Positions 11,383 to 40,119 are shown, numbered from the stretch's first letter. The stretch: DNA of 64,000 bases from a candidate division WOR-3 bacterium (GCA_965649295.1 CBFGKH010000008.1:77000-140999), one strand, 5' to 3'. Numbers and translations are program-made. Notes: generated by a model not told the origin, from the sequence alone.

Positions 11383-11513
11383 GGTAGTTCACTCTAGCAC
11401 GGTCGCTCGACAGGCGCAAGCCTTGACCAGTTGTCGTTTGGTAGTAACTTTAGGCGGCCTGCGCCACTTGTCGGGCAGCGGTGCAGGCCGTAACCACTAA
11501 GGAGCAGCAACGC

Positions 11514-24304: not shown

Positions 24305-24361
24305 TTGGCGGTGGCCCAGTGATTATTGACACGACTAGGTCGAAGGTTACACTCTGCCAAG

Positions 24362-26518
24362 ATGCTAGTGGTCTTGCTGCTGGTTGGGCTGGTGCCGGCA
24401 GATTCGAGCCGGCCGGCGATTGCGGCGAGATTCACAACGGTTGCGCCCGTGATTGACGGCGAGCTGGAGGAGGTCTGGCAACAGGCTGACCCGGCCACGA
24501 ACTTCACTCAGCTCACCCCGAACTGGGACTCGGCGGCTACCGACCTGACTACTGCCTGTGTGCTCTACGACCGGCAAAATATCTACGTCGCGTTCCGCTG
24601 CTTTGTCCACGACCCCAAAACCATTCGCGCCCGGCTTTCGGATACGCCGGACGGCGTCCGGCTGTTCTTCGACACATTTGAGGACCACAACAGTTGTTAT
24701 CAGTTCGTAGTCAACGCCTCTGGCACCGAGCAGGGCTACCGGTTGACCGAGAACGGTACGATGGTAGCGAAATGGGATGGTGTCTGGCGCTCGGCAGTAA
24801 AGGTAGCTGACTGGGGCTATGCGGTAGAGCTGGCGATACCGTTCAAGACATTGCGCTATCCGCCAACGAAGACCACCTGGGGGGTTGATTTCGGTCGCTA
24901 TACGGTCTCACGGGGTGAGAAGAGCTTCTGGTGCCGTCACCAGCAGACCGGGTTCAGAGTCGAGAATATGGGCCGGCTAACCGGCATCACCCCGCCGCCG
25001 CCAGGACTGCATCTGGAGGTCTATCCGGTCGCGCTCGGCCGCGCTGCTAAGACCGGCGAACCGTGGCGCGATTCGCTCTCAGCCGCTGCCGGCCTGGACA
25101 TGTCGTGGTTGCCGACGCCGTCTGCCAATGTCCAGCTCACAGTGCTGCCTGATTTTGCCCAGATTGAGGCTGATCCATATCAGCTCAATCTGACCAAGTA
25201 TGAACTCTGGCTTGCCGAGCGCCGACCGTTCTTTACCGAGGCGCAGGAGAACTTCGGCAGCGCAGTCGGGACTGCCCGGATGTTCTACTCGCGCCGCATT
25301 GGCAAGGCGTTGCCGGACGGCAGCGTGGTGCCGATTCTCGGTGGGCTGAAGTACACCGACCGCTGGGGCCGATATCAGGTCGGTGCGCTCGCTGCCCTGA
25401 CCGGCAAGACTGATTACGACTACTATGGCAGCCGCTTGACTGAACCCCAGAGCTGGTTCAGTGTGGCGTCCTTGCGGCGCGGCATTTTTGAGAACTCAGA
25501 GGTCGGTTTGCTCTACGCTGGCAAGGATAACGCTTACGGTCACAACAATGGGCTGCGGGCTGATGCCACGTTGCGGTTTGGCGAGCTGACTGCCGGGCTC
25601 GTCGGCGCTGCCAGCCTGCGCTACGATACGCTGCATGACTTCGCCAGCTTGATAAGGCCCGGAACAAGCGACAGTTTTGATTGGGCTACGGGAGCCGGCC
25701 TGAGCTACGAGACTTCAACCTTCACCGGGTCGGTCGCGCTGCGCCATGTCGGTCCTGAGTTTGATATGAATGGGCCTGGTTTCACGACTTGGCGCGGGCA
25801 GGAGCTGAGCCTCAATGCCGGTCCGGTCGTCTATAACCGCGGCCCGTTTCGTTATGCGATGCTGACCTTTTCGGCCAATGCGAACCGGGAATGGGATTAC
25901 AAGGAGCCAGGGCCGGACTGGGGGGTGACGACCAATCCTTATGCGATCTTTCAGAATCGCTGCGGCCTTGCGTTATGGGGTGGGTTTAGCCGTAGTCGGT
26001 ACCAGGACCAAGGCGGCACCGAGCACCGGTACTCTGGGGCTAACCTGGGTTGCCATATCTTTACTGATGAGAGTCAGCCAGTATCGGGATGGGTCTGGGC
26101 CGACTTCAACACCCAGACCTACAACTACAACCGTCAGGTGTTGGCACCAAGCGGTTCCGGCGGCGGCTATCTGATGGTGCAGGTCGGCGATCGAGCCCAG
26201 GTCTCGACCGAGGCCAATCTGACGCTGGAGTTTCCTGAGCGGGGAGGGGTTAGTTGGCAGCGAGACGTGACCGTCGTGTTGCGGCCTAGGCTTGACTATG
26301 CGCTCAGCCCCAAGATGACAGTTGGTATTGGTAACGAGATAGTGGACGCGGCAGTTGGCGACGGCATGCGCGCCTGGACGTACCGCCTGACTGGCCTCTA
26401 CTCCTATACGTTTCTACCACGGAGCACAGTTTACTTTGCCTGGAATATGAATCTGGGCGAGGACAAGCCAACCGAACTGGTGCAGGTAATCAAGCTGCGC
26501 TATCTCTTCGTGTTCTGA
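24362..26518 (+). CDS. CBM9-like / DUF5916 outer-membrane protein
   Basis: PVIDGELEEVW, VELAIPFKTLRY, PDFAQIEAD, ERRPFFTE, FYSRRIG; C-terminal beta-signal ending in F. Confidence 0.8.
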   Translation: MLVVLLLVGLVPADSSRPAIAARFTTVAPVIDGELEEVWQQADPATNFTQLTPNWDSAATDLTTACVLYDRQNIYVAFRCFVHDPKTIRARLSDTPDGVRLFFDTFEDHNSCYQFVVNASGTEQGYRLTENGTMVAKWDGVWRSAVKVADWGYAVELAIPFKTLRYPPTKTTWGVDFGRYTVSRGEKSFWCRHQQTGFRVENMGRLTGITPPPPGLHLEVYPVALGRAAKTGEPWRDSLSAAAGLDMSWLPTPSANVQLTVLPDFAQIEADPYQLNLTKYELWLAERRPFFTEAQENFGSAVGTARMFYSRRIGKALPDGSVVPILGGLKYTDRWGRYQVGALAALTGKTDYDYYGSRLTEPQSWFSVASLRRGIFENSEVGLLYAGKDNAYGHNNGLRADATLRFGELTAGLVGAASLRYDTLHDFASLIRPGTSDSFDWATGAGLSYETSTFTGSVALRHVGPEFDMNGPGFTTWRGQELSLNAGPVVYNRGPFRYAMLTFSANANREWDYKEPGPDWGVTTNPYAIFQNRCGLALWGGFSRSRYQDQGGTEHRYSGANLGCHIFTDESQPVSGWVWADFNTQTYNYNRQVLAPSGSGGGYLMVQVGDRAQVSTEANLTLEFPERGGVSWQRDVTVVLRPRLDYALSPKMTVGIGNEIVDAAVGDGMRAWTYRLTGLYSYTFLPRSTVYFAWNMNLGEDKPTELVQVIKLRYLFVF

Positions 26519-26571: not shown

Positions 26572-27234
26572 TCAGGGTACGACAGTAACCACTAGCACCG
26601 GCGACCAGCCACTAGCGGCGCCGAGCGTGTCCTGGGCCCTGACCCGGACCCAATACTCGCCAGGAGCAGACCAGGAATAGAGCAGTCGGGCAGTGTCGCC
26701 GCTAGCGTAACCGCTAGCGGTCGTGGTCCGGCCATCACCCCAGTCAAAGCAGTAGCTGATGATGTCGGCCTCAGGGTCGGTTGTTGCCGCGCGAAACTCG
26801 GCAGCCGAGTCAGCCGGCAGGGTGTCCCGTCCGAGCACAGCTGTTGGCGGTAGCGGCGGCGCGTTGATTACGGTCACCTGTTTTGGCTCTGACCAGGCTG
26901 ATGCCGGTCGGTCGGCAGCCACAGCGATGACTCGACAGCGGACAGTGAAGTGGCCGGTGTCGAGCCAAGTATGGACTAGGGTCACAGTATCACCGAGCCG
27001 CAGCGGCCCAGTAGTCTCGGTGGCAACGTTGCTCCAGACTATCACATAGCAGATACGGGCGACGACGTCGGGCTGATTGTAGAATCGAAACGTGCCCGGT
27101 TCATGATGGTGAAGGGTGTCGGGACCGGCTGGGGTTTCGGGCATGGGCAGGTCATTGCGGCCGCAGCAGAAAATGAGGAGTGCCGCCAGCAAAGGCGGCA
27201 CTCCTCCTAACAGGTGTTTCAGACCAGCCCTCAA
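26572..27234 (-). CDS. PKD-domain lipoprotein
   Basis: Signal ending IFCC; TDPEADIISYCFDWGDG PKD motif. Confidence 0.75.
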   Translation of the reverse strand: MRAGLKHLLGGVPPLLAALLIFCCGRNDLPMPETPAGPDTLHHHEPGTFRFYNQPDVVARICYVIVWSNVATETTGPLRLGDTVTLVHTWLDTGHFTVRCRVIAVAADRPASAWSEPKQVTVINAPPLPPTAVLGRDTLPADSAAEFRAATTDPEADIISYCFDWGDGRTTTASGYASGDTARLLYSWSAPGEYWVRVRAQDTLGAASGWSPVLVVTVVP

Positions 27235-29364
27235 CTAGCGAGCGCCATACCGACCGGTGTGGCGGGCGTCGTGGTGGAACATCGGCCAGGGCGTTGTTGC
27301 CAGACGCCGGTTGGCCGCTGGGCCGGCAACGGCAAACAGGCCGCTCTGAGTGGCGACATAGATGATGCCGTATTCGTCAAGTACTGGCGATGGTTGCTCG
27401 CTGAAGCCAAACCGACGGGCGCCCGATGGCGGAAGCAGGTCGAGGTACCAGCGGACAAAGCCGAACCGATCGAGCGAGAAGAGCCGTTCGTCATCATCAA
27501 CAAGATAGAAGCCGTCCTGATACACGACCGGCGTGGCAGAGAATGCGTAGGTCGAAATCGGCTTCGGCCAGCCAGGCTCAGACTGGCGGGTCTGGATGTT
27601 GATGTTGTGGAACCGGCCGTTCTCGTCGGCAATATAAATATTGCCGTCGGTGCCGAAGACGGGTGACGATGTGAAAGCAGTTGACTCGGCAGTGTAGGTC
27701 CACTGGATGGCGCCGTCCTTGACGGCGTGCAGGCGACCAGCCTCAGTGGCGACATAGGCGGTGCCGTCGGGACCAATCGCCGGGCTGGCAGTGATGCCAA
27801 CCGGGTCGGTGGCTACGGTCCAGACAACGGCGCCGGCCGGAGTAACCTTGTACACGAAGCCGGAGTCGTCGGCGACGATGACATTGCCGGCTCCGTCAAT
27901 TACCGGCGATGAGGATGCCTCATAGCGCAGGTCAACAGCCCAGTTGTGGGTGTAGGTCGAGCCGTTGTCGGTTATCTTGTGGAGCTTGCGGTCGTCGCCA
28001 GCAAAGTAGATGGCGTTGCCGTCAATTGCCGGCGTGGTGGTGATGTCAATCCCGGTTGCCGAGTCAGGATAGTGCCAGACCAAGGAACAGTTGGGGGCGA
28101 TTGCAAAGAGCGTACCATTGTCGTTGCCGATGTAGATTGTGCCGTTGGTGTTGATGGCGGGGGACGAACTGAAGCCTTCGAGGTCGTCGCCAAGCGTGCC
28201 GCGGTCGAGCAGCCGTCGTGCGGTCGGGCCGAGGTGGGCATCAATACAGACAATCGCCTCGTCTTCGTTGCCGAAGCTCTTGCTGCCGATGACGAGCGCG
28301 GTCTGATTGCCGCCGCGATAGGGCATGGTGCTGATAGCCGGAGAGCTGATGAATTCGCCACTAATCGCCCAAATCTGCTGTCCCTCGCCGACAACGCGGA
28401 AGGTAGTAGCACGTTCGGCCGAACGGGCACCATAAGGGTCAATTGCGACGACTCGGATGTTGAACGTGCCGGTATCGGTAGGAGTCCAGGTGGCAAAACC
28501 AGTGCTGCCACTGCGGAAGTAGCTGGTAGTCACACTGTCACTTGCGCCGAAATAGAAGCGGTAGCAGATACTGTCGCCATCGTCGTCAATCGCCCAGACA
28601 TAGAAGCGATAGGCCGGGCCGTTGGCCATGCCTTGGGACGGGGCAGCATCAAACGTTGGCGTGCCTGGGGCGCGATTGCCGCCCGGAACCTGGATGGTGA
28701 TGACGGTCGGCGGTGAGGCCGGTGAAGTGTCGCCGCGGACATCAATTGCCCAAGCAGTGATGGTCTTCTGGCCGGCGCTGGGATAGCGGACATAAGCAGT
28801 GGCAGTGCCACCGCTGGGGAGGGTTGGGCTCTCGTAAGGGTTGAGGCCGGGGTCGCCAAAAGTAATCAGGACGCGCAGCGAGTCGTTGTCCGGGTCGGTT
28901 GCCGAGGTGGTAATGGTCAGCAGCGAGTCCTTGAAAAGCGGCCCAGACACAGCCGGCTGAGTTGGCGCATTGGGACGCTGGTTCGGCGGTGGATTGGCCG
29001 AATCGTAATAGACCCGCACTCGGAGCGTATCTGACCAGTCCGGGCTGTACAGGCCCTTTTCGTCTTTGGCTTTGACGCGAATGTAGTAAACGCCAAGTGA
29101 ACGCCAGGCGTGGCTGGCGGTTACGGTCTGGCCGGATTTGACCAGGTCGGTTACGGTTGAATCGCCGTCGCGCCAGTCAAAGATGTACAGTATGCGATCG
29201 CGATTGGGGTCGGTGGTAACAGCGGTATAGGCGGCGGTGTCGCCGAGCGCTACCGAGTCTGGCCCAGTCGGCCGAGCCGGGACTCGCGGCGCCTTATTAC
29301 GACAGCCGGCTGCGAGCAGCAGAATCATTGCGGCCAGCAGCGTACAGACCAGGTTTCGTTTCAC
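27235..29364 (-). CDS. Lipoprotein with PKD-like domains and PQQ-type beta-propeller
   Basis: GTG 29364 with AGGAGG; LAAGC lipobox; TDPNRD/TDPDND repeats; SSPAI...GTIY propeller repeats; WPMFHHDARHTG. Confidence 0.82.
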   Translation of the reverse strand: MKRNLVCTLLAAMILLLAAGCRNKAPRVPARPTGPDSVALGDTAAYTAVTTDPNRDRILYIFDWRDGDSTVTDLVKSGQTVTASHAWRSLGVYYIRVKAKDEKGLYSPDWSDTLRVRVYYDSANPPPNQRPNAPTQPAVSGPLFKDSLLTITTSATDPDNDSLRVLITFGDPGLNPYESPTLPSGGTATAYVRYPSAGQKTITAWAIDVRGDTSPASPPTVITIQVPGGNRAPGTPTFDAAPSQGMANGPAYRFYVWAIDDDGDSICYRFYFGASDSVTTSYFRSGSTGFATWTPTDTGTFNIRVVAIDPYGARSAERATTFRVVGEGQQIWAISGEFISSPAISTMPYRGGNQTALVIGSKSFGNEDEAIVCIDAHLGPTARRLLDRGTLGDDLEGFSSSPAINTNGTIYIGNDNGTLFAIAPNCSLVWHYPDSATGIDITTTPAIDGNAIYFAGDDRKLHKITDNGSTYTHNWAVDLRYEASSSPVIDGAGNVIVADDSGFVYKVTPAGAVVWTVATDPVGITASPAIGPDGTAYVATEAGRLHAVKDGAIQWTYTAESTAFTSSPVFGTDGNIYIADENGRFHNINIQTRQSEPGWPKPISTYAFSATPVVYQDGFYLVDDDERLFSLDRFGFVRWYLDLLPPSGARRFGFSEQPSPVLDEYGIIYVATQSGLFAVAGPAANRRLATTPWPMFHHDARHTGRYGAR

Positions 29365-29412
29365 AACTCCTCCTAAAGATCGGTGGCTTCCTGCAAGATA
29401 AAGCAACATAAG

Positions 29413-29440
29413 AGGATAGCCAAAATCGCGTGCGCGTCAA
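29413..29440 (-). promoter_or_regulatory. sigma70-like promoter of PKD/PQQ lipoprotein operon
   Basis: TTGACG-16 bp-TATCCT. Confidence 0.5.
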
Positions 29441-29469: not shown

Positions 29470-29661
29470 ATAAAGTGGTGCGCGGTGCGCCTTGGGCTTA
29501 GGCGCACCGCGCTGGTGTTGGTCCCCGTCGAGATTTGATTGACTGGTGAAGGAAGGAGGGGACACTTGTGAGCGCAAAACCCTCCCTTGAGACAGTTGGA
29601 GAGAACCTCAGCTTGGCTCGGTCTAAAACTCTCCAAGGCCCACCACGTTACTACCCCAGCG
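29470..29661 (-). ncRNA. Candidate sigma54-dependent structured RNA (~190 nt)
   Basis: Begins at the predicted +1 of a -24/-12 promoter, has several stems, ends in a 13-bp GC hairpin (29480-29512); no convincing ORF. Confidence 0.55.
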
Positions 29662-29671
29662 TTTCCCTTAC

Positions 29672-29687
29672 TGCAACTCCTGTTCCA
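29672..29687 (-). promoter_or_regulatory. sigma54 (-24/-12) promoter
   Basis: TGGAAC-AGGAG-TTGCA, one mismatch to TGGCAC-N5-TTGCW with exact GG-N10-GC spacing. Confidence 0.7.
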
Positions 29688-29712
29688 GCAGCCAAGGTTT
29701 CCATTGTCTTCT

Positions 29713-29766
29713 GTAAGTGTCACACTTACGCATCTTGTGGGAAGGTATGCGACCAATAATGTCGCA
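29713..29766. promoter_or_regulatory. Palindromic sites upstream of sigma54 promoter (putative enhancer)
   Basis: TGCGAC-N7-GTCGCA 29748-29766 (about -96) and GTAAGTGT-C-ACACTTAC 29713-29729 (about -60). Confidence 0.55.
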
Positions 29767-29815
29767 CTAGCTTAGAAAGTGCCGTATTCTTCTGCTTTAG
29801 AACAGCAGAAAACGG

Positions 29816-31411
29816 CTATAGATTGTATTCGTCGAGCTTGCGCCGCAGGGTGTCGCGGTGGATTCCGAGTAGTTCTGCGGCCTTGGTCTGGTTGTTACCA
29901 GTCTTGGCCAGGGCTTCCTTGATCGCCAGTCGTTCTAGCTGCTGTAGATTGAGGGTGCCGGTGATCTTTTCAATTGAGACGGACTGTCCGGTCGGAGCAC
30001 TGGCGCTGGGCGGGTGGAGGAGGCTGGCCATGGCCAGGGTTGACATTATGTGACCGAGGCCGAGCTGTTTGCTACCGTCGTATTGGGCGCGTTCGTAGGC
30101 CCGTTCGATTACGTTGCACAGTGTCCGGATGTTGCTGACGAAGATCTGGTTGCCGCCATCGATGTGTTCCTGAACGAGCTGGGTCAGGAACTTGACTGCA
30201 GCCGGTTCGGCGGTGAGTTTATTCGGATGGCGCGGACTGGCGTTCATTTGATTGATGATGTACTCAAAGTAGTCGCCGATGTCGGCAGCCACGACCTGCG
30301 GCGACTCAGACTGCCAGCGTTCGCGCAGGGACGGAACAATTATGCAGTGCTGGACAAGACGGGCGTAGAAGTCGGGCCGGAAGCGAACTTGAAGTTCGGC
30401 AATAGTGCGGTTGGTAGCGGCGATAATCCGCATGTCCACCACGGTCTCAGTGGATGAACCGAGTCGTTTGATGCGGTGGTGTTCAATCGCCCGGAGGAGT
30501 TTGACCTGAACTTCTTGGTCAACATCACCGATTTCGTCGAGGAGAACAGTCGAGCCCTGGGCGGCCTCGAAGATACCCGCTCGCTCGCCGGTAGCGCCGG
30601 TGAAGGCGCCTCTTTCATGGCCGAACAGTTCGTCCTCGATAAGGCTACGTTCGAGCGAGGCCATGTTGACGGTGCAGGGATACTCACGGAGCCGGTCCTG
30701 GGCACGATAGCGACTACTACAGCGGTGCAGGGCGTTGGCCACCAGTTCCTTGCCAGAGCCAGTCGGACCAAGCAGGATGACTGCCGCATCGGAGGGGCCG
30801 ATTCGTTCAATCTCGTAGGCGAGGAGCGCCATTTTGCGGGCCCGGCCGATGACCATGTGATGGTCATCCAGCCAGCGCTGGCGCCGGTTTTCGTCGAGTG
30901 GCCGCAGGGCCAGGGTATCAATGCTTTCGCAGATATGGGGATAGTAGTTCTCGCCGGCTGCCCGTTCCGGCACAAAATTACAGATTCCGTATCCGGGATG
31001 GACAATGAACTCGGCGAACTCGCTAAGTGATTCGGTGCCGATGCGGCCAGAGACAAACAGTACTGGTGCTACTCGATCGATATCATCGTGGCGAAGGTGG
31101 GCATAGATAATGAATCCCTGCAATGCCTGGTTGTCGAACGGCCGCGAGCTGGGCCGCAACGAGGCTGGTCGCGCGGCGAGCTTGCGTTCGTCCTTGATGT
31201 GCGAGAAGTCAATATCCTGGACAATTAGCGACACAAAACGACCGGTGTTGTGGCGATACCAATCGCGAAGCGCGGCGAGACAGTCGATGTGTTCGAAGTC
31301 GAACTCGGCCGCCAGCCGGCCGCCAGCATAGCTACGGGCATGGCTGACTAGGGTGTCGAAGCTGGTTTTCAGGTCATCGATGACGAGGATAACGGGTTTA
31401 GGGTCGGGCAT
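29816..31411 (-). CDS. sigma54-dependent enhancer-binding protein with atypical receiver domain and Fis HTH
   Basis: GPTGSGKE, ELFGHERGAFTGA, LLDEIGD, RIIAATN, GNNQTKAAELLGIHRDTLRRKL; N-terminal VILVIDD...QDID. Confidence 0.92.
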   Translation of the reverse strand: MPDPKPVILVIDDLKTSFDTLVSHARSYAGGRLAAEFDFEHIDCLAALRDWYRHNTGRFVSLIVQDIDFSHIKDERKLAARPASLRPSSRPFDNQALQGFIIYAHLRHDDIDRVAPVLFVSGRIGTESLSEFAEFIVHPGYGICNFVPERAAGENYYPHICESIDTLALRPLDENRRQRWLDDHHMVIGRARKMALLAYEIERIGPSDAAVILLGPTGSGKELVANALHRCSSRYRAQDRLREYPCTVNMASLERSLIEDELFGHERGAFTGATGERAGIFEAAQGSTVLLDEIGDVDQEVQVKLLRAIEHHRIKRLGSSTETVVDMRIIAATNRTIAELQVRFRPDFYARLVQHCIIVPSLRERWQSESPQVVAADIGDYFEYIINQMNASPRHPNKLTAEPAAVKFLTQLVQEHIDGGNQIFVSNIRTLCNVIERAYERAQYDGSKQLGLGHIMSTLAMASLLHPPSASAPTGQSVSIEKITGTLNLQQLERLAIKEALAKTGNNQTKAAELLGIHRDTLRRKLDEYNL

Positions 31412-31413
31412 CG

Positions 31414-33627
31414 CTATTGTGATTGTAGGCTTTGGGGTTGGGTTTGCAAGCGGTTATGGGCCTCCTGCAACACCGAGATGAGGTCGGTGATGCGGAGCCA
31501 GAGTTTTTCTTCGGGGTGGGCTGGTTGCCAGTCTGGGCCGGGCGCGTCGAGGGCGGGGCGCAAGTTGGTAACGAGCTCGGTGAGCTCACTGACGAGGTGT
31601 CCCTGGCGCTGACCGAGATCAATCCTCTCGGTCGAGTCGGAGTAAAGGGTGATGAGGAGCTTGCGGTTCCACTGGGTGCTGACGATGTAATCGAGGACGA
31701 TTGCGCCCTTGTTGTGGGCGTAGCTGAAGTGGTCGATCAGCAGGTGCTCAAACACGCTGCGCAGCCGTGGGCTGGAGAACCAGCGCAATTGGCCGTAGAT
31801 GTCGGGGTACTCCCGGTTGCGAACGCAGAGAATCCTGAAACCGGGCTGGGCCAGTTCTTGGTCTAGCTGTTCACGGCTGATGGTTGCAACGCTAGTTTCG
31901 GGCCGGATATGTAGCGCGGTCTTGGTAATGAAATCAAGAGCCAGGTCGGTCGGGGTCCTTTCGATGAGCCGGGTGACAGCAGCAGAGTAGTGTGGTTCGA
32001 TGCGGGTTCGAATCTGCCCCAGGTCATAATCGTCCTTCAGTCCAGCGCGGTCGCGTATATCGATAAGCCGATCCAGCGCGGCCGGCCAGTTGCCCTTGGA
32101 GATGAAGTTGTGTTCGAGAGCGACAAAATCGACTGCCAAGCCGGTGCGAACCGATAGTGGCAGACTTTCGATGAGCTGACGGGTTGTCTTTCGTCGTCGT
32201 AGCAGGATAAGCGCTAGACTGATAACGAGACCTAGACCTAGGGCGGAGATTAGCAAGGTGGGCAACAGGCGCCGGACTGAGAAAGGAGTTCGTCGCAGCC
32301 GGGGTGTTGGAAGCTGACGGTTGGGGTCGAGGCTGGCATTGAGCAGTTCGAGCCGACGCAGGGCCCGTTGGAGACCGGTTTCGTCGCCGGCCAGGGCAGC
32401 GGCATTTGCCCTCGCTTCGGCCTCGACAATGGCCTGCCGCAGGTGATGGAGGTTGTTCTTGAACAGGTCAATCCGATAGGGTGAGTCGGCCGCGGTGCGA
32501 ACGACTACCAGATCGGGAAAGGTGTCAGCGCCAAGTTGGGCAGTGAGCAGGTGCCGGAAGGTGACGCCGTTGTAGCCGGGCGAGTAGTCAACCGCATCGG
32601 CTAGGTTGGCGGGTAGTAGGTGGAATGTTTCCGGCCCAGACGGCTTTCGCCAGATTACGAGTAACCGACCAGCAACGGGCGCAAGCAGGACTGGTCGGCC
32701 CAAAGTGGGAGCGAACAGATGTTTCGCACACTGCCGTCCGGAATCGTCGAACGCGGCGATGAATCCCTGGTTATCAGGAGCGAGAGTACCAGCAACATAG
32801 CAGGCGCCGGTTGTGGCCAGCACAGCCAGGCCGCTCGCCGGGCTTCCGTCAATCACCAGCGGGGCAGACCAGCGAACCTGGGCGGTGGTGCCGCCAAGAC
32901 AGGTGAGGATCGAGGACGAACTGCCGTCGGTCGTCGGGCCGGCCAAGCCGACGATTTCGGGCTCGCCGTCCTGATCAATGTCAGCGCAGGAGAACTTGCT
33001 GATGGCCGGTACACGAATGACCAGCTCGCGGCGGCCGCCGAGGTCAGCTACCAGCAGTCCATCTGGACCAGCGGCGACAAACTCGGGGATTCCGTCGCCG
33101 TCGAGCTCACAGAGCAGCGATTGGTTTGAGGCGTGGCCGGGTCGCAGCCGGTTGCTGGTAGCGGTGTTTTGGGTCAGGGCAATCAGCCAGGCGGTGTCGC
33201 CAGCCCAGGCGCAGCAGTGCAGTGTCTCACCGCGGCCCGGCGAGACGAAGGTGAGGCTGTCAACATTAGTGGGCAGGATTTTCGCCGATTGCCAGCGCCA
33301 CTGACCGAAGATGTTGGTGCTGACTATTGTGCCCTGGGTGGCAAAGTAGAGAGAAGAATCGACCCCAGCCAGTGCAGTAGCGCCGGCCGGAGCTTGGCCG
33401 ACAATCCGCAGGGTGTCGGCCAGCGAGACGGTGGCAAGCCGACCGTCGGCGAGCAGCAGATAGACGACGTCACCGCCAGGTTGGTGAAGGACCGTCACTG
33501 CTCGGGGTCGAGCCGCGAGCTTGAAGGATTGCAGCGGCGACAGGAGGCCGGCCTCGGCGGGCAGCACCAACGCCAAGAGGGTCAGCAACGGAAGCAGGCG
33601 ATGATGGGGCGTGGGTGCCAGGACCAC
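31414..33627 (-). CDS. Membrane sensor-like protein: FG-GAP/beta-propeller ectodomain, TM, degenerate histidine-kinase-like cytoplasmic region
   Basis: Signal peptide; LDGDGIPE, DIDQDGEPEIV, DTFPDLVV repeats; TM followed by RRRK; stop lies 2 nt before the activator start. Confidence 0.7.
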   Translation of the reverse strand: MVLAPTPHHRLLPLLTLLALVLPAEAGLLSPLQSFKLAARPRAVTVLHQPGGDVVYLLLADGRLATVSLADTLRIVGQAPAGATALAGVDSSLYFATQGTIVSTNIFGQWRWQSAKILPTNVDSLTFVSPGRGETLHCCAWAGDTAWLIALTQNTATSNRLRPGHASNQSLLCELDGDGIPEFVAAGPDGLLVADLGGRRELVIRVPAISKFSCADIDQDGEPEIVGLAGPTTDGSSSSILTCLGGTTAQVRWSAPLVIDGSPASGLAVLATTGACYVAGTLAPDNQGFIAAFDDSGRQCAKHLFAPTLGRPVLLAPVAGRLLVIWRKPSGPETFHLLPANLADAVDYSPGYNGVTFRHLLTAQLGADTFPDLVVVRTAADSPYRIDLFKNNLHHLRQAIVEAEARANAAALAGDETGLQRALRRLELLNASLDPNRQLPTPRLRRTPFSVRRLLPTLLISALGLGLVISLALILLRRRKTTRQLIESLPLSVRTGLAVDFVALEHNFISKGNWPAALDRLIDIRDRAGLKDDYDLGQIRTRIEPHYSAAVTRLIERTPTDLALDFITKTALHIRPETSVATISREQLDQELAQPGFRILCVRNREYPDIYGQLRWFSSPRLRSVFEHLLIDHFSYAHNKGAIVLDYIVSTQWNRKLLITLYSDSTERIDLGQRQGHLVSELTELVTNLRPALDAPGPDWQPAHPEEKLWLRITDLISVLQEAHNRLQTQPQSLQSQ

Positions 33628-33678
33628 CGCCTAACTGTAGCCCGGTGGTGAGAACTGTCAACCGGGCCGAGTCGCCAA

Positions 33679-34836
33679 CTAGCGGTTGGCGGCGCCGTCC
33701 TGAACTGCGGCGACGACAGTAGCAAACTCCTTTTCTGACATCAATGGCTCCATTGGCAGCGAGACAACTTCGGCAGCAGCTTGCTCGGTCTCAAGTAGCG
33801 GGCCAGCAACTCGGGCGCGGCTGGCAAAAGCCTTCATCTTGTGGAGCGGCAGACCGTAACGTACCGCGCAGGCGACGTTGCGGTCGCAAAGATACTGAAT
33901 GAGCCGGTCGCGGTTGGTGCTGCGCAGGGTGTAGCCGTTATAGACATGCTCGCCGTTTTGGGGGAATGGCGGCGGGGTGATGCCGGGGATGCGACCAAAG
34001 GTACGGGTGTATTGGATCGCAATCTGCCGGCGCAGACCGTTGAATGCCTCAATGTGGTTGAGCTTGGCGAGGAGGACAGCGGCCTGCAGCGTGTCCAGCC
34101 GGCTGTTGTAGCCGAGGAGGTCGGCCGACTCGGTACCATTGGTGCCGTGCCGGCGCAGACTGTCAATGATGCGAACCAGCTCGGGGTCATCGGTTGTCAC
34201 CATTCCGCCCTCGCCGAAGCCACTCAGGTTGCTCTCCGGGCCGAAACTGAAAGCGGCCGCGTCGCCAAACGAACCGCAACGTCGGCTGCCGCAGCGGGCG
34301 CCAAACGCCTGAGCGGTATCCTCGACAACAAAGAGCTGGTGATCGCGGGCGATGGCAATGATTTCGTCAAGGCAGCAGGCCTGACCATAGAGATGAACCG
34401 GCACGATTCCCACGGTTCGGCTGGTGATGGCGGCGTGGATTTGGGCGGGCGCGATGTTGAACGAAGTGCGGTCGATATCAACGAACACCGGCGTTGCGCC
34501 TGCTCGGACGATCGCATCAGCCGTTGCCGGGTGACTGAAGGCGGTGGTGATTATCTCATCTTCGAAACGGAAGTACTCCCGGCCGGTCCGCTGCTGCGCA
34601 AGCGCTCGCAGCGCCAGTAGTAACGCATCGGTGCCCGAGGCACACCCGACAGCGTGTTTCGTACCGACATACTCGGCGACGCGAGTCTCAAGCTCCCGAA
34701 CCTCGGGGCCATTGACCCAGCCCTGATGATTCAGGGCACGACTGATGGCGGTGTCAATGTCGTCACGAAGAAAGTCATATTGACGCTTGGGGTCGAAGAG
34801 CGGAACCCGAAAGCGCGGTTTGTTTGAGCCGGTCAT
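33679..34836 (-). CDS. DegT/DnrJ/EryC1/StrS aminotransferase homologue lacking the PLP lysine
   Basis: ASGTDAL, PVHLYGQ, EDTAQA, NSRLDTLQAA; SFGPESNLSG where the family has SF.P.K.LG. Confidence 0.88.
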   Translation of the reverse strand: MTGSNKPRFRVPLFDPKRQYDFLRDDIDTAISRALNHQGWVNGPEVRELETRVAEYVGTKHAVGCASGTDALLLALRALAQQRTGREYFRFEDEIITTAFSHPATADAIVRAGATPVFVDIDRTSFNIAPAQIHAAITSRTVGIVPVHLYGQACCLDEIIAIARDHQLFVVEDTAQAFGARCGSRRCGSFGDAAAFSFGPESNLSGFGEGGMVTTDDPELVRIIDSLRRHGTNGTESADLLGYNSRLDTLQAAVLLAKLNHIEAFNGLRRQIAIQYTRTFGRIPGITPPPFPQNGEHVYNGYTLRSTNRDRLIQYLCDRNVACAVRYGLPLHKMKAFASRARVAGPLLETEQAAAEVVSLPMEPLMSEKEFATVVAAVQDGAANR

Positions 34837-34884
34837 TCATCCCTCCCACAGTCTTAGAACTCAGAGCATCATAATCTTGTTTCT

Positions 34885-36423
34885 TTACACCGTTCGCTGC
34901 TGGTCACAAGGCCGCGGCCGGTCTTCAACCAGTTCGTATTCACCGCCACAGCCGGGGCAGCGGGTTCTAGCAGCAACAAAAGCAAGGCTAACACCGCAGG
35001 CGCAGGCCCAGCCCTGAAAACGGGCTGGTGTGCCGGCGACTACGGCATAGTCAGGAACATCAGTAGTGACAACCGCGCCGTCACCAACGCGGCAATACTG
35101 ACCGAGTGTACAACCGGCGGCAATGGTCGCTCGGTGGCCAATGACCGCACCGCGCCGAATACGGGTGGTTACTACCGACCGTGAATCGCCCACGGCTGCG
35201 CCGTTGCCACAGCTAACGTTGTCGCCGATTTCAACTCCCGCGCCGATGATGGCGCCGGTGCCAATCCGGCAACCCGCACCAATCCGGGCATCACTGGCTA
35301 CCAGCGCGCCGGCAGCTACCACCGTGTCAGGGCCGAGCCGCGGGTTAGCGCTAATGACGTTGGCAACTGGAACTAGCTGCGGCGGCGGGTTCTTGGCAAC
35401 GGTTGTCGGTGACGCCATTGCCTGAGACACAGTTAGTGGCCAGGGTTCGGCGCTGGTCGCGCCGGCGGGTTCCTCGTCCGGGACTAGGTCGGGATGGGCC
35501 TCGCCGATGGAGACAAGCTGACCTTGGGCCAGCAGCGATTCCTCGGCAGCAGCCAGTACCCGTAGGAGCTTCAGGTATTCGTGACCGTCGGTTCGCGAGG
35601 GCAGACGGTTGGTGCAGCAGTCGAGGAAATGCTCGCATTCGACCAGCAGCGGGTCGCGGTTGAGATAGGGAACGAGTTCCTCAGCGGCGCTGGCGACACC
35701 GGTCGGCTTGGGCCCAGGAGCGGGGCGGACGAGCTTGATGCCAGGCAGAGCGTCGTCAAGAACAGCCAGTCCGCGCGAGCCGATAACGACGAGCTGGGCA
35801 GCGGCCAGCGGATGAAGCCAGGATACAAAAGTATGGGCGATGATGCCGCCCGAAAATGTAATCGCTGTCAGGGTGACATCGGAAGCGGCGAAACCGAGAA
35901 ACGGCGAGCCGTGCGCGGCCACCCGTACCGGCTGGTCTTCGAGCAGACCGAGAATGACGGCCAGGTCATCGGGAGCAAAGCTGGTCCTCAGCTCTTCGTC
36001 CGGCCGTAGCTGGCCAGGGCAGAAGCGATGGACGTAGATATGCTCGATGCGGCCGAGCACGCCCAGGCCAACTAGTTCCTGAAGCTTGAGTACTGCCGGG
36101 TGATAGCGCCGAGCACAGCCGACCTGCAGAATCCGCGATTGGCTGTCAGCCAAGGCAACCAGTTCCTCGGCAGCGGCAATGTCGGCGGCCAACGGTGGCT
36201 CAACAAAGACATCTCTGCCGGCGGTAAGCGCTGCGCGGCAGATCTCGAGTTGTGCCGCAGGCTCTGTCGCTACGACTAGGCCGTCAATGGTCGGGTCGGC
36301 AAGGAGTTGGGTTGGTTCTGGTCTTTCGGTGCCAAGGCGCAGGGCACCAAGGCGGGCGAACTCCCGCGCCAAGGCTGCGGCGCGACCGCGACTGCCGACA
36401 ACAGCGAGACGCCGCCGGGTCAT
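34885..36423 (-). CDS. Gfo/Idh/MocA oxidoreductase + hexapeptide acyltransferase fusion homologue (WbpB/WbpD-like), degenerate
   Basis: VFVEPPLA, SFAPDDL, FVSWLHP, ECEHFLDC; left-handed beta-helix repeats, VTTDVPDYAVVAGTPAR, CACG...CPGCG tail. Confidence 0.82.
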   Translation of the reverse strand: MTRRRLAVVGSRGRAAALAREFARLGALRLGTERPEPTQLLADPTIDGLVVATEPAAQLEICRAALTAGRDVFVEPPLAADIAAAEELVALADSQSRILQVGCARRYHPAVLKLQELVGLGVLGRIEHIYVHRFCPGQLRPDEELRTSFAPDDLAVILGLLEDQPVRVAAHGSPFLGFAASDVTLTAITFSGGIIAHTFVSWLHPLAAAQLVVIGSRGLAVLDDALPGIKLVRPAPGPKPTGVASAAEELVPYLNRDPLLVECEHFLDCCTNRLPSRTDGHEYLKLLRVLAAAEESLLAQGQLVSIGEAHPDLVPDEEPAGATSAEPWPLTVSQAMASPTTVAKNPPPQLVPVANVISANPRLGPDTVVAAGALVASDARIGAGCRIGTGAIIGAGVEIGDNVSCGNGAAVGDSRSVVTTRIRRGAVIGHRATIAAGCTLGQYCRVGDGAVVTTDVPDYAVVAGTPARFQGWACACGVSLAFVAARTRCPGCGGEYELVEDRPRPCDQQRTV

Positions 36424-36608
36424 GGGTTGGTCAGGTCTTGTCGGCTGCCCGACAATTGGCCCTTGCTTTTTCGGAAGTCAGCAGTCAGTTTCACCCTCCC
36501 GGCCAGAATGGCCATCAGGACCGCAGTGCGGTCAGTTCACGGGCGCGTCACATTGTCGCCGGGTTTCTGCTGCTAGTGGTTCGCCGGTGCCCAAATCGGG
36601 CACGGAAG

Positions 36609-36637
36609 ATTATAGCCAAAACGATAGGATTGGTCAA
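36609..36637 (-). promoter_or_regulatory. sigma70-like promoter
   Basis: TTGACC-17 bp-TATAAT, about 185 nt upstream of the 36423 start. Confidence 0.65.
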
Positions 36638-37164
36638 TTGCCGGCAGGCGGCGATGGCCCAAACTGGTCGGTGATTGGTTTGAGAAGCAAGATCACTAGG
36701 ACTGAAGCCGGAGCCAGGGCAATGAGTAATCCTAGGATGAGGCTGAGAAGACCCGCGCGGTCAGGCTCGAGCAGGCTGAGAACTGGCAGTAGCAGTGTTG
36801 AGCCCCAGACGACAGCGACGACCGCGGCCAAAAGATGAAGCAGGGTTACGAGATACCAGCCCCAGCGGCGCCGGCGGAGCAAGCCGACTGAACCGGCGAG
36901 CAGCAGCCCATTGGCCACGACGGCGATGCGGTTGAGCAGGGTCAACTGGCCAAGCAGCCGGTCCAGGGCCAGACTGCTCGTGCTGCCCAACAGCGAGCCG
37001 AGTCCACCGAGCACGGAGTCGGCCGAGAAACTGGCGTACAGGCCGAGTGCTAGCAGGCCAAAGAGCAGTCCTAGTCCGGACTGGATAATCAGCAGCCAGG
37101 CGCCGATTGTCAGTAGAACGCGCCAGCGCCGGAGATTCCGATTCTCTCCGGCGCTGGCAGCCAA
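36634..37164 (-). CDS. Small polytopic membrane protein
   Basis: About four Leu-rich TM segments. Confidence 0.65.
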   Translation of the reverse strand: MAASAGENRNLRRWRVLLTIGAWLLIIQSGLGLLFGLLALGLYASFSADSVLGGLGSLLGSTSSLALDRLLGQLTLLNRIAVVANGLLLAGSVGLLRRRRWGWYLVTLLHLLAAVVAVVWGSTLLLPVLSLLEPDRAGLLSLILGLLIALAPASVLVILLLKPITDQFGPSPPAGN

Positions 37165-37188
37165 GGTGTCGCGGCTAGTTGGTCGTTC

Positions 37189-38538
37189 CTACCGAACGAC
37201 GCCTTTCCTCTTGAGCATTGCCGTGACCAGCTCCTCGAGGTCGGGCTTGGACTTCTCGTGCAGCCGGTAGCGCACGCGCACTATCGGCTTGGCGGAGCTG
37301 ATGATACGGCTGAGGTCAATCGGCGTCCCGGAGACGACGACGTCGCAGTCGGTCCGGTTAATCGTGGCTTCGAGCTCGCGCAGCTGCTGGCTAGAGTAGC
37401 CCATTGCCGGCAGCACATTTTCGAGGTGGGGAAACTCGACAAACGTCTTCGCCAGTGAGCCGACCGCATAGGGCCGCGGGTCCACGATCGCCTTGGCGCC
37501 GAACTGCTCGGCCGCAATCTTGCCAGCGCCATAGCCCATGCCGCCATGGGTGACAGTTGGGCCGTCTTCAACGACGAGCACCCGTTTACCCTTGATTGCT
37601 GCCGGGTCGGTAACGGTCAGCGGTGAATCGGCGTCAATGATGACGGCATTGGGGTTGGCCTTGCGGACGTTGCGGCGGACCTGCTCAATCGCTTCCGCCG
37701 TGGCCGAGTCCTCTTTGTTGATGATGACCGCATCGGCCAGCCGGAGATTGACCTCACCGGGGTGATAGAGCAGCTCGTGGCCGGCACGGAGCGGGTCGGC
37801 AATCACAGCAAGGAAGTCGGGCCGGAAGAAGGCGATTTCGTTGTTGCCGCCGTCCCAGACAATCACATCGGCCTCGGCCTCAGCATGCTTGAGGATTTCG
37901 GCGTAATCGCAGCCGGCATAGATTACCATGCCGTGCTCGATGTAGGGCTCGTATTCCTCACGTTCCTCGATTGTCACCTTGGCGCGGTCGAGGTCGTCGT
38001 AAGTTGCGAAGCGCTGCCAGACCTGCTGCTCGAGGTCGCCATAGGGCATCGGCTCGCGCACCGCCACTACCCGCAGGCCATGGTTCCGGATTATTTCATA
38101 GACGCGGCGCGAGGTTTGCGACTTGCCGCAGCCGGTGCGAACCGCACAGACCGCTGCTACCGGCTTGTGCGCCTGGAGCTGTACCCGGCGCGGCGAGATG
38201 AGCCGAAAGTCGGCGCCGGCAACCAGCACCCGCGAGGCCAGGTTCATCACATAGACATGAGCGACGTCAGAGTAGGCAAAGACGACCTGGTCAACTTTCA
38301 GTTCGGGGATGAGCCGGTCGAGGTCGTGCTCGTAGTAGGTGGGAATGCCGTTGGGGTAGAGCTTGCCGGCAAGGCTGGCAGGATAGGGTCGAAGTCCACC
38401 GGTCGTGCCCAGGTTCTGCTCGGCGGCCATCGTGAAGCCGACAACATCGTAGTCAGGATTGTCGCGGAAGCAGGTGTTGAAGACGTGGTAGTCCATGCCG
38501 ACCGCGCCGACAATGATGACCCGTTTCTTAGTAGCCAC
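37189..38538 (-). CDS. P-loop protein of the cyclic 2,3-diphosphoglycerate synthetase / arginine synthetase (ArcE)-like family
   Basis: AVRTGCGKSQ, PMPYGDL, TIEEREEYEP, WDGGNN, EDGPTVTHGGM, LPAMGYS. Confidence 0.8.
   Translation of the reverse strand: MATKKRVIIVGAVGMDYHVFNTCFRDNPDYDVVGFTMAAEQNLGTTGGLRPYPASLAGKLYPNGIPTYYEHDLDRLIPELKVDQVVFAYSDVAHVYVMNLASRVLVAGADFRLISPRRVQLQAHKPVAAVCAVRTGCGKSQTSRRVYEIIRNHGLRVVAVREPMPYGDLEQQVWQRFATYDDLDRAKVTIEEREEYEPYIEHGMVIYAGCDYAEILKHAEAEADVIVWDGGNNEIAFFRPDFLAVIADPLRAGHELLYHPGEVNLRLADAVIINKEDSATAEAIEQVRRNVRKANPNAVIIDADSPLTVTDPAAIKGKRVLVVEDGPTVTHGGMGYGAGKIAAEQFGAKAIVDPRPYAVGSLAKTFVEFPHLENVLPAMGYSSQQLRELEATINRTDCDVVVSGTPIDLSRIISSAKPIVRVRYRLHEKSKPDLEELVTAMLKRKGVVR

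Positions 38539-38574: not shown

Positions 38575-40119
<1,545 letters not shown>

Follow-up and report, generated by a model that had tools for sequence, protein, structure and literature searches.

A sensor–activator gene pair followed by a predicted sigma-54-driven small RNA in candidate division WOR-3 bacteria

Introduction

Circuits in which a sensor and a sigma-54 activator control a small RNA (sRNA) are known from proteobacteria. The GlrK/GlrR–GlmY system of Escherichia coli reportedly brings together, at one locus, a membrane sensor, an activator with receiver, AAA+ and helix-turn-helix (HTH) domains, tandem dyads, a sigma-54 promoter and a terminated sRNA. In LuxO–Qrr of Vibrio and CbrA/CbrB–CrcZ of Pseudomonas, a phosphorylation-controlled bacterial enhancer-binding protein (bEBP) is said to act at sigma-54 promoters to drive a single sRNA or a set of siblings. 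Here we analyse a locus of similar design in the genome of a candidate division WOR-3 bacterium. It occupies positions 29,470 to 36,637 of a 64,000-nucleotide (nt) stretch (GCA_965649295.1 CBFGKH010000008.1:77000-140999; hereafter the window, with positions counted from its first letter), for which an original prediction, made from the sequence alone, had proposed a new signalling system of pseudo-enzymes, a pseudo-kinase sensor, an atypical sigma-54 activator and a sigma-54-driven RNA.

Each of the elements reportedly present in GlrK/GlrR–GlmY (sensor, activator, tandem dyads, sigma-54 promoter and terminated sRNA at one locus) has a putative counterpart in the window. The GlmY gene, however, is said to lie upstream of the kinase gene, whereas the RNA here lies 3′ of the activator; the RNA matches no Rfam family, HisKA and HATPase_c go undetected in the sensor, and the receiver lacks a conserved lysine. 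The predicted bEBP-driven sRNA also recalls LuxO–Qrr and CbrA/CbrB–CrcZ, and two genomes of a related genus group carry two sibling RNA copies with the same enhancer, but the RNAs are not related in sequence. In Desulfovibrio vulgaris, the response-regulator EBPs DVU0653 and DVU0679 are each listed with an ‘ncRNA downstream of’ their own gene (PMC4641369); as far as that listing goes, a response-regulator EBP gene is followed by its sigma-54-dependent non-coding RNA as it is here, a likeness of gene order alone, between different phyla and different RNA and protein families.

A full-text library search found no publication joining WOR-3 with sigma-54. The design itself is known; what is new is an RNA without an Rfam model, a kinase fold invisible to Pfam and NCBIfam and a receiver without the usual lysine, every part of the proposed switch being an uncatalogued family in an uncultured lineage.

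Conservation of the sensor, the activator and the RNA

The working unit of this locus is probably a two-component-like switch for a small RNA, with two enzyme-like genes lying outside it. Open reading frame (ORF) calling gave, at this locus, four intact, co-oriented ORFs on the − strand (fusion, aminotransferase-like, sensor and activator genes), separated in gene order by gaps of 48, 51 and 2 bp (Table 1). The activator ORF is followed on its 3′ side by palindromes, a −24/−12 promoter, a structured RNA of about 190 nt and a terminator hairpin, so that the layout proposed in the original prediction held up in the ORF, palindrome, promoter and fold analyses.

Relatives were drawn from 61 related genomes for the sensor search, 132 genomes of the class for the RNA model and 44 genomes of the family, including that of the window; their proteins carry the NCBI label ‘candidate division WOR-3’. 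Below, g1, g2, g3 and g8–g12 denote genus groups, G with a number a single genome, and L with a number a locus. At the level of sequence, comparison supports a unit of the activator gene, the tandem dyads, the sigma-54 promoter and the RNA, with the sensor gene adjoining that of the activator. A query with the 737-aa sensor found it in 21 of the 61 related genomes, and in 10/10 relatives’ loci fetched, from four families of the order, the sensor gene lies directly upstream of the activator orthologue. A database search for related loci returned 5 loci. Within the family, a profile of the sensor domain matched 12/44 genomes, namely g1, g8 (3/3) and g9 (8/11), and a receiver profile recovered the activator more widely, in 39/44 genomes (40 matches).

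In seven loci of the window’s family, a sigma-54 promoter comes after the activator gene, and beyond it lies a terminated RNA of clear homology. A covariance model derived from 15 RNA copies, all from this family, matched 37 of the 132 genomes of the class, all of them in the one family (36/43 plus the window’s own genome); because the model was built from that family only, absence elsewhere may reflect divergence. The RNA lies directly 3′ of an activator orthologue in 15 of 16 newly found loci, the sixteenth being at a contig start. Judged from these alignments, the gene pair, the enhancer, the promoter, the RNA and the terminator are conserved.

We infer the following order of events. The membrane sensor, with its periplasmic FG-GAP-like domain and a cytoplasmic domain of divergent histidine-kinase fold, would receive a signal and pass it, most likely by His-to-Asp phosphotransfer, to Asp66 in the receiver of the adjacent activator. 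The activator would then bind two TGCCG-N7-CGGCA dyads, starting at the stop codon of its gene, and open the sigma-54 promoter about 110 bp downstream of them. The product, a terminated and non-coding RNA about 190 nt long, would act in trans, probably by pairing with mRNAs. The host genome (2.28 Mb in 19 contigs, rated 100% complete, 60% GC) encodes rpoN (161.7 bits) and has five strong bEBP matches and eleven HATPase_c matches above the cut-off.

Table 1 Features of the locus, with positions in the window
Feature	Position	Strand	Basis
Small RNA, ~190 nt, 5′ end predicted	29470..29661	−	covariance-model match 29471-29667, alignments, fold
Terminator hairpin, 13-bp GC-rich stem and weak U tract (CACCACUUUAUCU)	29480..29512	−	fold, covariation
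Putative sigma-54 (−24/−12) promoter TGGAACAGGAGTTGCA	29687..29672	−	consensus match and conservation
Two further palindromes, TGCGAC-N7-GTCGCA and GTAAGTGT-N1-ACACTTAC	29713..29766	−	palindrome scan
Putative enhancer (upstream activating sequence), two 17-bp dyads TGCCG-N7-CGGCA, 21 bp apart	29780..29817	−	dyad conservation in relatives
Sigma-54 activator (bEBP), 531 aa	29816..31411	−	atypical receiver (1-185), AAA+ (GAFTGA), Fis-type HTH
Membrane sensor, 737 aa	31414..33627	−	signal peptide, FG-GAP-like periplasmic region, one transmembrane helix, DHp and CA-like domain
Sigma-70-like promoter in the gap before the sensor gene	33661..33634	−	10/12 consensus positions; consensus match only
DegT/WbpE-like aminotransferase homologue, 385 aa, Ser for pyridoxal phosphate (PLP) Lys	33679..34836	−	Pfam, alignments
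Degenerate Gfo/Idh/MocA sugar 3-dehydrogenase and hexapeptide (LbH) N-acetyltransferase fusion, 512 aa	34885..36423	−	Pfam, NCBIfam, alignments
Sigma-70-like promoter 5′ of the fusion gene	36609..36637	−	11/12 consensus positions; consensus match only

Promoter and enhancer

The putative promoter, TGGAACAGGAGTTGCA, is the sole match to TGGMAYN5TTGCW in the window. The chance expectation for this motif is 0.28, with one or more matches in 25 of 100 shuffles; a single site in the window is thus not significant alone, and its conservation in relatives is what counts. The window promoter agrees with the consensus at 10 of 11 positions (TGGCAC-N5-TTGCW, GG-N10-GC core), and a promoter matching at least 8 of the 11 is present in 26/28 loci.

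Three perfect palindromes lie between the activator stop codon and the promoter. The one first noted in the original prediction is the inner part of the dyad pair (TTCTGCT-N7-AGCAGAA). The proximal dyad of this pair, AGCAGAAGAATACGGCA, lies at −109; the distal dyad is degenerate and overlaps the activator stop codon. At least one dyad of the form TGCCG-N7-CGGCA, with an AT-rich spacer and at most two mismatches, occurs at −90 to −137 in 21 of the 28 loci, against 0.6 expected from shuffles, and the dyads are frequently paired, at about −109 and −130. TGCCG-N7-CGGCA sites with at most one mismatch number 512 in a genome-wide scan and are too common to be informative by themselves. A crude scan for an AT-rich-spacer dyad with a sigma-54-like site downstream gave only 3 combinations genome-wide, and of these only the RNA promoter agrees with TTGC at the −12 element, where the other two read GTGC and ATGC. 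Half-sites of the GTCGCA type, as in one of the two further palindromes, were seen by eye in the g8 relatives.

Two contigs of genome G036, carrying loci L057 (G036:C262) and L068 (G036:C43), overlap in near-identical RNA promoter regions. One of them reads TTTGTCAAGACTCTTGC, in which TGT replaces the TGG of the −24 element; the difference is either strain variation or an assembly artefact.

The two enzyme-like genes

WbpB, WbpE and WbpD are pathway enzymes for UDP-2,3-diacetamido sugars, and the two genes preceding the sensor gene are presumably degenerate orthologues of a WbpB/WbpD-like fusion and a WbpE-like aminotransferase. In relatives, the orthologues resemble a fused 3-dehydrogenase/N-acetyltransferase and a 3-aminotransferase; the best NCBIfam models for them are UDP-GlcNAc 3-dehydrogenase and NeuD/PglB/VioB acetyltransferase, all with scores below the curated cut-offs. 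The two genes are adjacent in 19 of 29 relatives’ loci, and in a twentieth by a weak match. The original prediction had called the window genes paralogues of such enzymes. When an intact orthologue (from G002) was used as query, the window fusion was the best match in the genome and there was no other fused copy, which leaves no paralogy to invoke.

Both window copies have lost catalytic residues. The fusion matches GFO_IDH_MocA over profile positions 52–119 only, together with Hexapep repeats (55 bits). Its Rossmann motif has changed from GxGxWGKN to GSRGRAAA, EKP to EPP with loss of the lysine, and ATPxxTH to ATEPAAQ, each of these motifs being kept in 8/8 orthologues; there is an 18-residue gap after beta-2, and in the hexapeptide domain many orthologue-invariant positions are altered (for example, H to V356 and QNNVS to GTGAI). 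The 385-aa protein matches DegT_DnrJ_EryC1 (PF01041) over its full length with 345 bits, and WbpE with E = 2e-71; the WbpE structures 3nys, 3nyu and 3nu7 are among its top PDB matches. Its PLP Schiff-base lysine is replaced by Ser202 (FSFGPESNL against fsfyptknl of 7b0d). That lysine is kept in 29/29 relatives’ aminotransferases, and among the best 120 database homologues 118 have Lys, one Thr and one Ser, the last being a 97%-identical, full-length protein from another assembly. The predicted loss of catalytic residues therefore holds for the aminotransferase (PLP lysine) and the oxidoreductase domain (GxGxxG and EKP lysine). The receiver lacks its lysine as predicted but keeps its acidic pocket, and the sensor keeps an invariant histidine (below).

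Plain decay of both genes into pseudogenes without remaining function is possible, though we think it the less likely course. It would account for the loss of catalytic and cofactor motifs in both genes and for the extent of change, which is confined to the window’s lineage: the fusion differs at 72/185 (38.9%) columns invariant in 8 orthologues and the aminotransferase-like copy at 17/103 (16.5%) otherwise invariant columns, against 3/114 (2.6%) in the adjacent activator. Set against decay are the two intact frames (512 and 385 aa), the roughly ten lineage-specific indels in the fusion gene, every one of them in frame, and the full-length protein with the same serine in another assembly. Because the frames have stayed intact through these indels and heavy substitution, we favour, on this one ground, a retained non-catalytic or altered role, which is probable and unrelated to the switch.

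A sensor with a divergent kinase-like fold

The sensor has a signal peptide followed by some 420 periplasmic residues, a transmembrane helix at about 455–478 and a cytoplasmic domain of about 255 residues (482–737). The periplasmic part gives two leads only, a weak FG-GAP_3 match (E = 0.0021) and protein-atlas look-alikes, scoring at most 0.88, among FG-GAP and BamB-like propellers. For the cytoplasmic domain, a word-based search returned 11 proteins, none of them informatively named or carrying a Pfam domain, and an exhaustive profile search of 1.84 billion representatives yielded 36 relatives. Its AF2 model (pLDDT 92) has a two-helix DHp hairpin followed by an alpha/beta CA (Bergerat) domain, and it matches EL346, CpxA and YycG with a Foldseek probability of 1.0 and kinase CA domains with a VIA Z of 10.3 (root mean square deviation 3.2 over 126 aligned residues). 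RetS and DivL are also among the structural matches (VIA Z 10.2 and 9.2). These two proteins reportedly lack normal autokinase activity and are still recognised as HisKA/HATPase_c. The sensor domain resembles them in its DHp and CA fold with a degenerate catalytic apparatus but differs in going unrecognised by Pfam or NCBIfam, with only those 36 relatives in the representatives searched.

Four residues, H506, H628, D632 and D664, recur in 28 or all 29 of the family proteins compared, among which pairwise identity falls to 19%. H506 (28/29) sits in the predicted helix at domain residues 10–28, which corresponds to DHp helix 1, and may be the phospho-accepting histidine. H628 and D632 form an HxxxD motif on the helix at the N-box position, and D664 ends the strand where the G1 aspartate sits, a mapping placed by eye on predicted secondary structure and not by residue-level structural alignment. 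The stretch that follows the G1-like aspartate is short (model residues 183–195).

The model thus suggests a highly divergent histidine-kinase fold for which autophosphorylation is a prediction. The original prediction had called the sensor a pseudo-kinase. It was right that canonical motifs escape detection by sequence, none of the histidine-kinase signatures (HisKA/HATPase_c; N, G1, F and G2 boxes) being found in the protein, and that name sits badly with the invariant histidine kept on the first helix of a kinase-like fold.

The activator, its receiver and phosphotransfer

Walker A (GPTGSGKE), GAFTGA and the HTH are all intact in the activator, as in a bEBP, and the output module is as had been predicted; Pfam assigns Sigma54_activat (PF00158) with 160 bits and HTH_8 with 54.7 bits. 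Its N-terminal region has no Pfam match at E ≤ 0.01 (Response_reg included), and the AF2 model (pLDDT 84) shows a (beta/alpha)5 CheY-like fold with an insertion of about 30 residues after beta-3, matching the receivers of ARR1, FleR, CheY and PhoP with a Foldseek probability of 1.0. D12, D13, D66 and S121, equated with CheY positions through the predicted strand order, are invariant in 11/11 activators with an adjacent sensor. Receiver domains otherwise end beta-5 with a conserved lysine. Immediately before the invariant Pro148, at the position that the predicted beta-5 strand equates with CheY K109, stands a hydrophobic Val, Ala or Ile, and the missing lysine was correctly noted in the original prediction. 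R123, two residues past S121, is also invariant, and it is speculation that this arginine compensates for the lysine. A search of the full-text library for the phrase ‘lacks the conserved lysine’ found no literature using it for a response regulator receiver domain.

One activator departs from this description. In G010 (L130, G010:C8, ~6291-7864) the receiver region is split between two matches in different reading frames, and the long ORF begins beyond them; either the receiver is frameshifted or the activator lacks one.

Phosphorylation independence had been proposed for the system, and it is unlikely in view of how the receiver varies with the sensor. Among the best 30 of the 40 receiver matches, with sensor presence taken from the sensor-domain profile search, the Asp66 position holds Asp in 11/11 family genomes with the sensor and in 5/19 where no sensor was found, a comparison among kin that overstates independence and is not a statistical test. 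The other sensor-less genomes have Gly, His, Ala, Asn or Glu, and in most sensor-less genomes the acidic pair and the serine are also gone. In tblastn searches of 8 sensor-less loci, drawn from 7 genera, the activator is found and a sensor gene is not, and the ORFs just upstream, scanned with Pfam, lie on the opposite strand. The variety of replacements argues for repeated decay, and a phospho-site that tracks the sensor is expected if the sensor acts through it and is not expected under pure docking. Real His-to-Asp phosphotransfer from the sensor to the activator’s receiver is therefore, in our judgement, the probable mode of signalling.

Complex prediction for the sensor’s cytoplasmic dimer with the receiver gave a score of 0.54, against 0.00 for the best of 3 controls, with runs that agree in at least 60% of contacts and partner pLDDT of at least 77. 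The mark set for such predictions is reached by 116/157 solved complexes and 2/215 mismatched pairs, and the range up to 0.60 holds only 18 of the 157 solved complexes and both passing mismatches. Kinase–regulator complexes are among those that have been solved, and the pass may reflect likeness to them; the model lends weak support to a contact between the two proteins.

Several points weigh against a phosphotransfer switch that drives a small RNA. The sensor has no Pfam or NCBIfam family above threshold and no HisKA or HATPase_c match, profile–profile comparison (hhalign) with six canonical kinases of the same genome gave a probability of 1.9% and hence no sequence-level relation, and no G1 or G2 glycine box is visible in its cytoplasmic domain. 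A profile search of the PDB with the receiver returned no solved receiver at E ≤ 1, and the alignment contains no invariant or nearly invariant lysine anywhere in the domain. The whole acidic pocket is kept in three sensor-less genomes, G009 and G018 (g10) and G029 (g9), in the last of which the gene upstream of the activator is divergent. The window’s promoter (TGGAAC), distal dyad and terminator U tract are all weaker than those of relatives, which makes read-through into the next gene, encoding a PKD/PQQ protein, possible, and both promoter and RNA are known here as sequence predictions.

Some of these features would suit a true pseudokinase that docks on a receiver-like domain without phosphotransfer, with the enzymes playing no part. 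The absence of any kinase motif detectable by sequence, the short region after the G1-like aspartate, the receiver without its conserved lysine, and the presence of RetS and DivL, kinase-fold proteins that do not autophosphorylate, among the structural matches all fit such a scheme. It does not explain the invariant histidine on DHp helix 1 or, as placed by eye, the conserved HxxxD and D664 at the N-box and G1 places. Nor would a pure docking interface need an acidic pocket, and D12, D13, D66 and S121 are all invariant only where the sensor is present. We regard docking of this kind as unlikely. Less likely again is a non-canonical, lineage-restricted pair (a kinase fold without ATP lid or glycine boxes, and Arg123 standing in for the lysine) to which the dead enzymes have been recruited here as ligand-binding partners of the sensor; we give this little credence.

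The family provides a natural experiment: in most lineages that yielded no sensor, the receiver phospho-site has been lost, whereas the activator, the promoter and the RNA persist. The route from receiver to pseudo-receiver, and the activity of an odd kinase fold, become testable in it.

The small RNA

The RNA copies share the blocks GACCGAGCC, GCGCUC, CACCAGUC and GGGGACC. The window RNA folds with −75.6 kcal/mol (z = −2.93), and 2 of 200 shuffles fold as well. In the terminator stem, compensatory changes affect 9/15 predicted pairs across 29 copies; a simple terminator scan of the window does not flag this hairpin. The internal structure is partly resolved: GCGCUC is strictly in a hairpin loop in only 5/29 single-sequence folds, and RNAalifold on a wider alignment recovers the terminator and one short helix only. 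Copies differ by indels of 1, 2, 5 and 7 nt, with no conserved reading frame, and since these are not multiples of three the RNA is taken to be non-coding. For the window region and 8 relatives’ loci, Rfam (Qrr, GlmY/GlmZ and CrcZ included) gave nothing better than E = 0.73.

Two g8 genomes have a second, shorter RNA copy, at L069 (G016:C145) and L070 (G024:C27). Each of these second copies has a separate sigma-54 promoter and a pair of near-perfect TGCCG-N7-CGGCA dyads; in the middle hairpin the outer stem is retained, and a short loop replaces the inner part. At L020 (G037:C69, ~11389-11510), in another family of the order, a sigma-54 promoter (TGGCATAATTTTTGC) comes after the sensor–activator pair and precedes an unlike RNA, some 80 nt long and strongly terminated, that the covariance model does not match.

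The gene 3′ of the RNA varies and is convergent in G008, G016, G007 and G037, so the RNA is most likely a free-standing sRNA and not a leader. That the RNA is instead a leader or attenuator, driven by sigma-54, of the gene after it, here the PKD/PQQ beta-propeller gene (29409..27235), is very improbable. The window’s weak U tract and the co-oriented next gene about 60 bp on would agree with a leader, as would the co-oriented downstream genes in G025 (a glycosyltransferase) and in G010 and G035 (aldehyde dehydrogenase). The inconstant and sometimes convergent downstream gene speaks against it, as do the strong terminators with U runs in which relatives’ RNAs end and the PKD/PQQ gene’s own sigma-70-like promoter match (29440..29413).

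For a free-standing sRNA, pairing with mRNAs is the probable mode of action, because neither CsrA nor Hfq was found in the host genome, rated complete as noted above; Hfq-dependent pairing or protein sequestration is unlikely for the same reason. Sequestration of CsrA, considered as a function, was rejected on this ground. Folding the RNA into naive duplexes with each of 1738 putative start regions gave no credible target, whole-length duplexes with a mean of −35.9 kcal/mol dominating the scan; local genes rank 328 to 1609.

The enzyme-like genes and signalling

The original prediction had gone further and made dead UDP-sugar enzymes the ligand sensors or scaffolds of a phosphorylation-independent path from envelope status through the pseudo-kinase to the activator, with the caveat that the link might be only positional. 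The caveat was well placed. Conservation of gene order with the sensor had been set beforehand as a test, and the enzyme-like genes adjoin the sensor gene in 0/10 relatives’ sensor loci, the adjacency being confined to this genome; because the pair never adjoins the sensor in the relatives examined, the link is positional only. The retention of the catalytic lysine in homologues (29/29; 118/120), set beside a loss of invariant positions in the window copies far beyond that in the activator, corresponds to a second refuting outcome named beforehand and also tells against the enzyme link. The idea that the enzymes are sensors could draw on four co-oriented, closely spaced genes, on catalytic residues truly lost within frames preserved through about ten indels, which suggests a retained non-catalytic role, and on a sensor without canonical ATP-binding boxes and a receiver without its lysine, but it is highly improbable, with other upstream neighbours at the relatives’ sensor loci (a PEMT-like gene, an FG-GAP protein gene or a divergent BNR/FlgD_ig gene), the intact pair in genera that have no sensor, degeneration confined to this lineage, and a receiver phospho-site that tracks the sensor. 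What stands of the proposed signalling system is the conserved layout of sensor, activator and predicted sigma-54-driven RNA (10/10, 15/16 and 26/28 loci); the enzymes and the phosphorylation independence do not stand with it. The degenerate enzymes cleanly exemplify how catalysis can be lost while the reading frame is kept, and nothing ties them to the switch.

Other features of the locus

A promoter of its own had been predicted for the sensor gene, and a sigma-70-like match indeed falls in the 51-bp gap before it (10/12 positions). This match (33634-33661) and the one before the PKD/PQQ gene (29413-29440), both on the − strand, end 3 to 6 nt before the annotated starts; the mRNAs of the two genes would on this account be leaderless, or the start codons miscalled.

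Two PKD-domain proteins, one with a PQQ/BamB-like beta-propeller, are encoded 3′ of the RNA (26572-29409, − strand), faced by the gene of a CBM9 and DUF5916 protein (24326-26518, + strand). All are probably secreted or surface proteins, and their genes are not conserved at the equivalent position in relatives. Upstream of the fusion gene, at 36634-38538 (− strand), lie two ORFs of 176 and 449 aa that match no Pfam or NCBIfam family except for one weak cobW match and were not found adjoining the enzyme pair in relatives.

In g9, g3, g2, g12 and g11, the divergent neighbour of the sensor or activator gene encodes a 460- to 584-aa protein that weakly matches BNR, FlgD_ig or both (L013:4862-6355, L017:4312-5811, L128:2249-3871, L129:2093-3556, L133:4673-6055 and L135:2147-3901). 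This recurrent neighbour is not present at the window locus.

An aldehyde dehydrogenase gene lies about 7 kb 5′ of the RNA in the window (38575-40119) and directly 3′ of the RNA in L109 (G010) and L115 (G035), with 75 to 78% protein identity. Because the gene adjoins the RNA in these two other genera, the window locus appears to have been rearranged.

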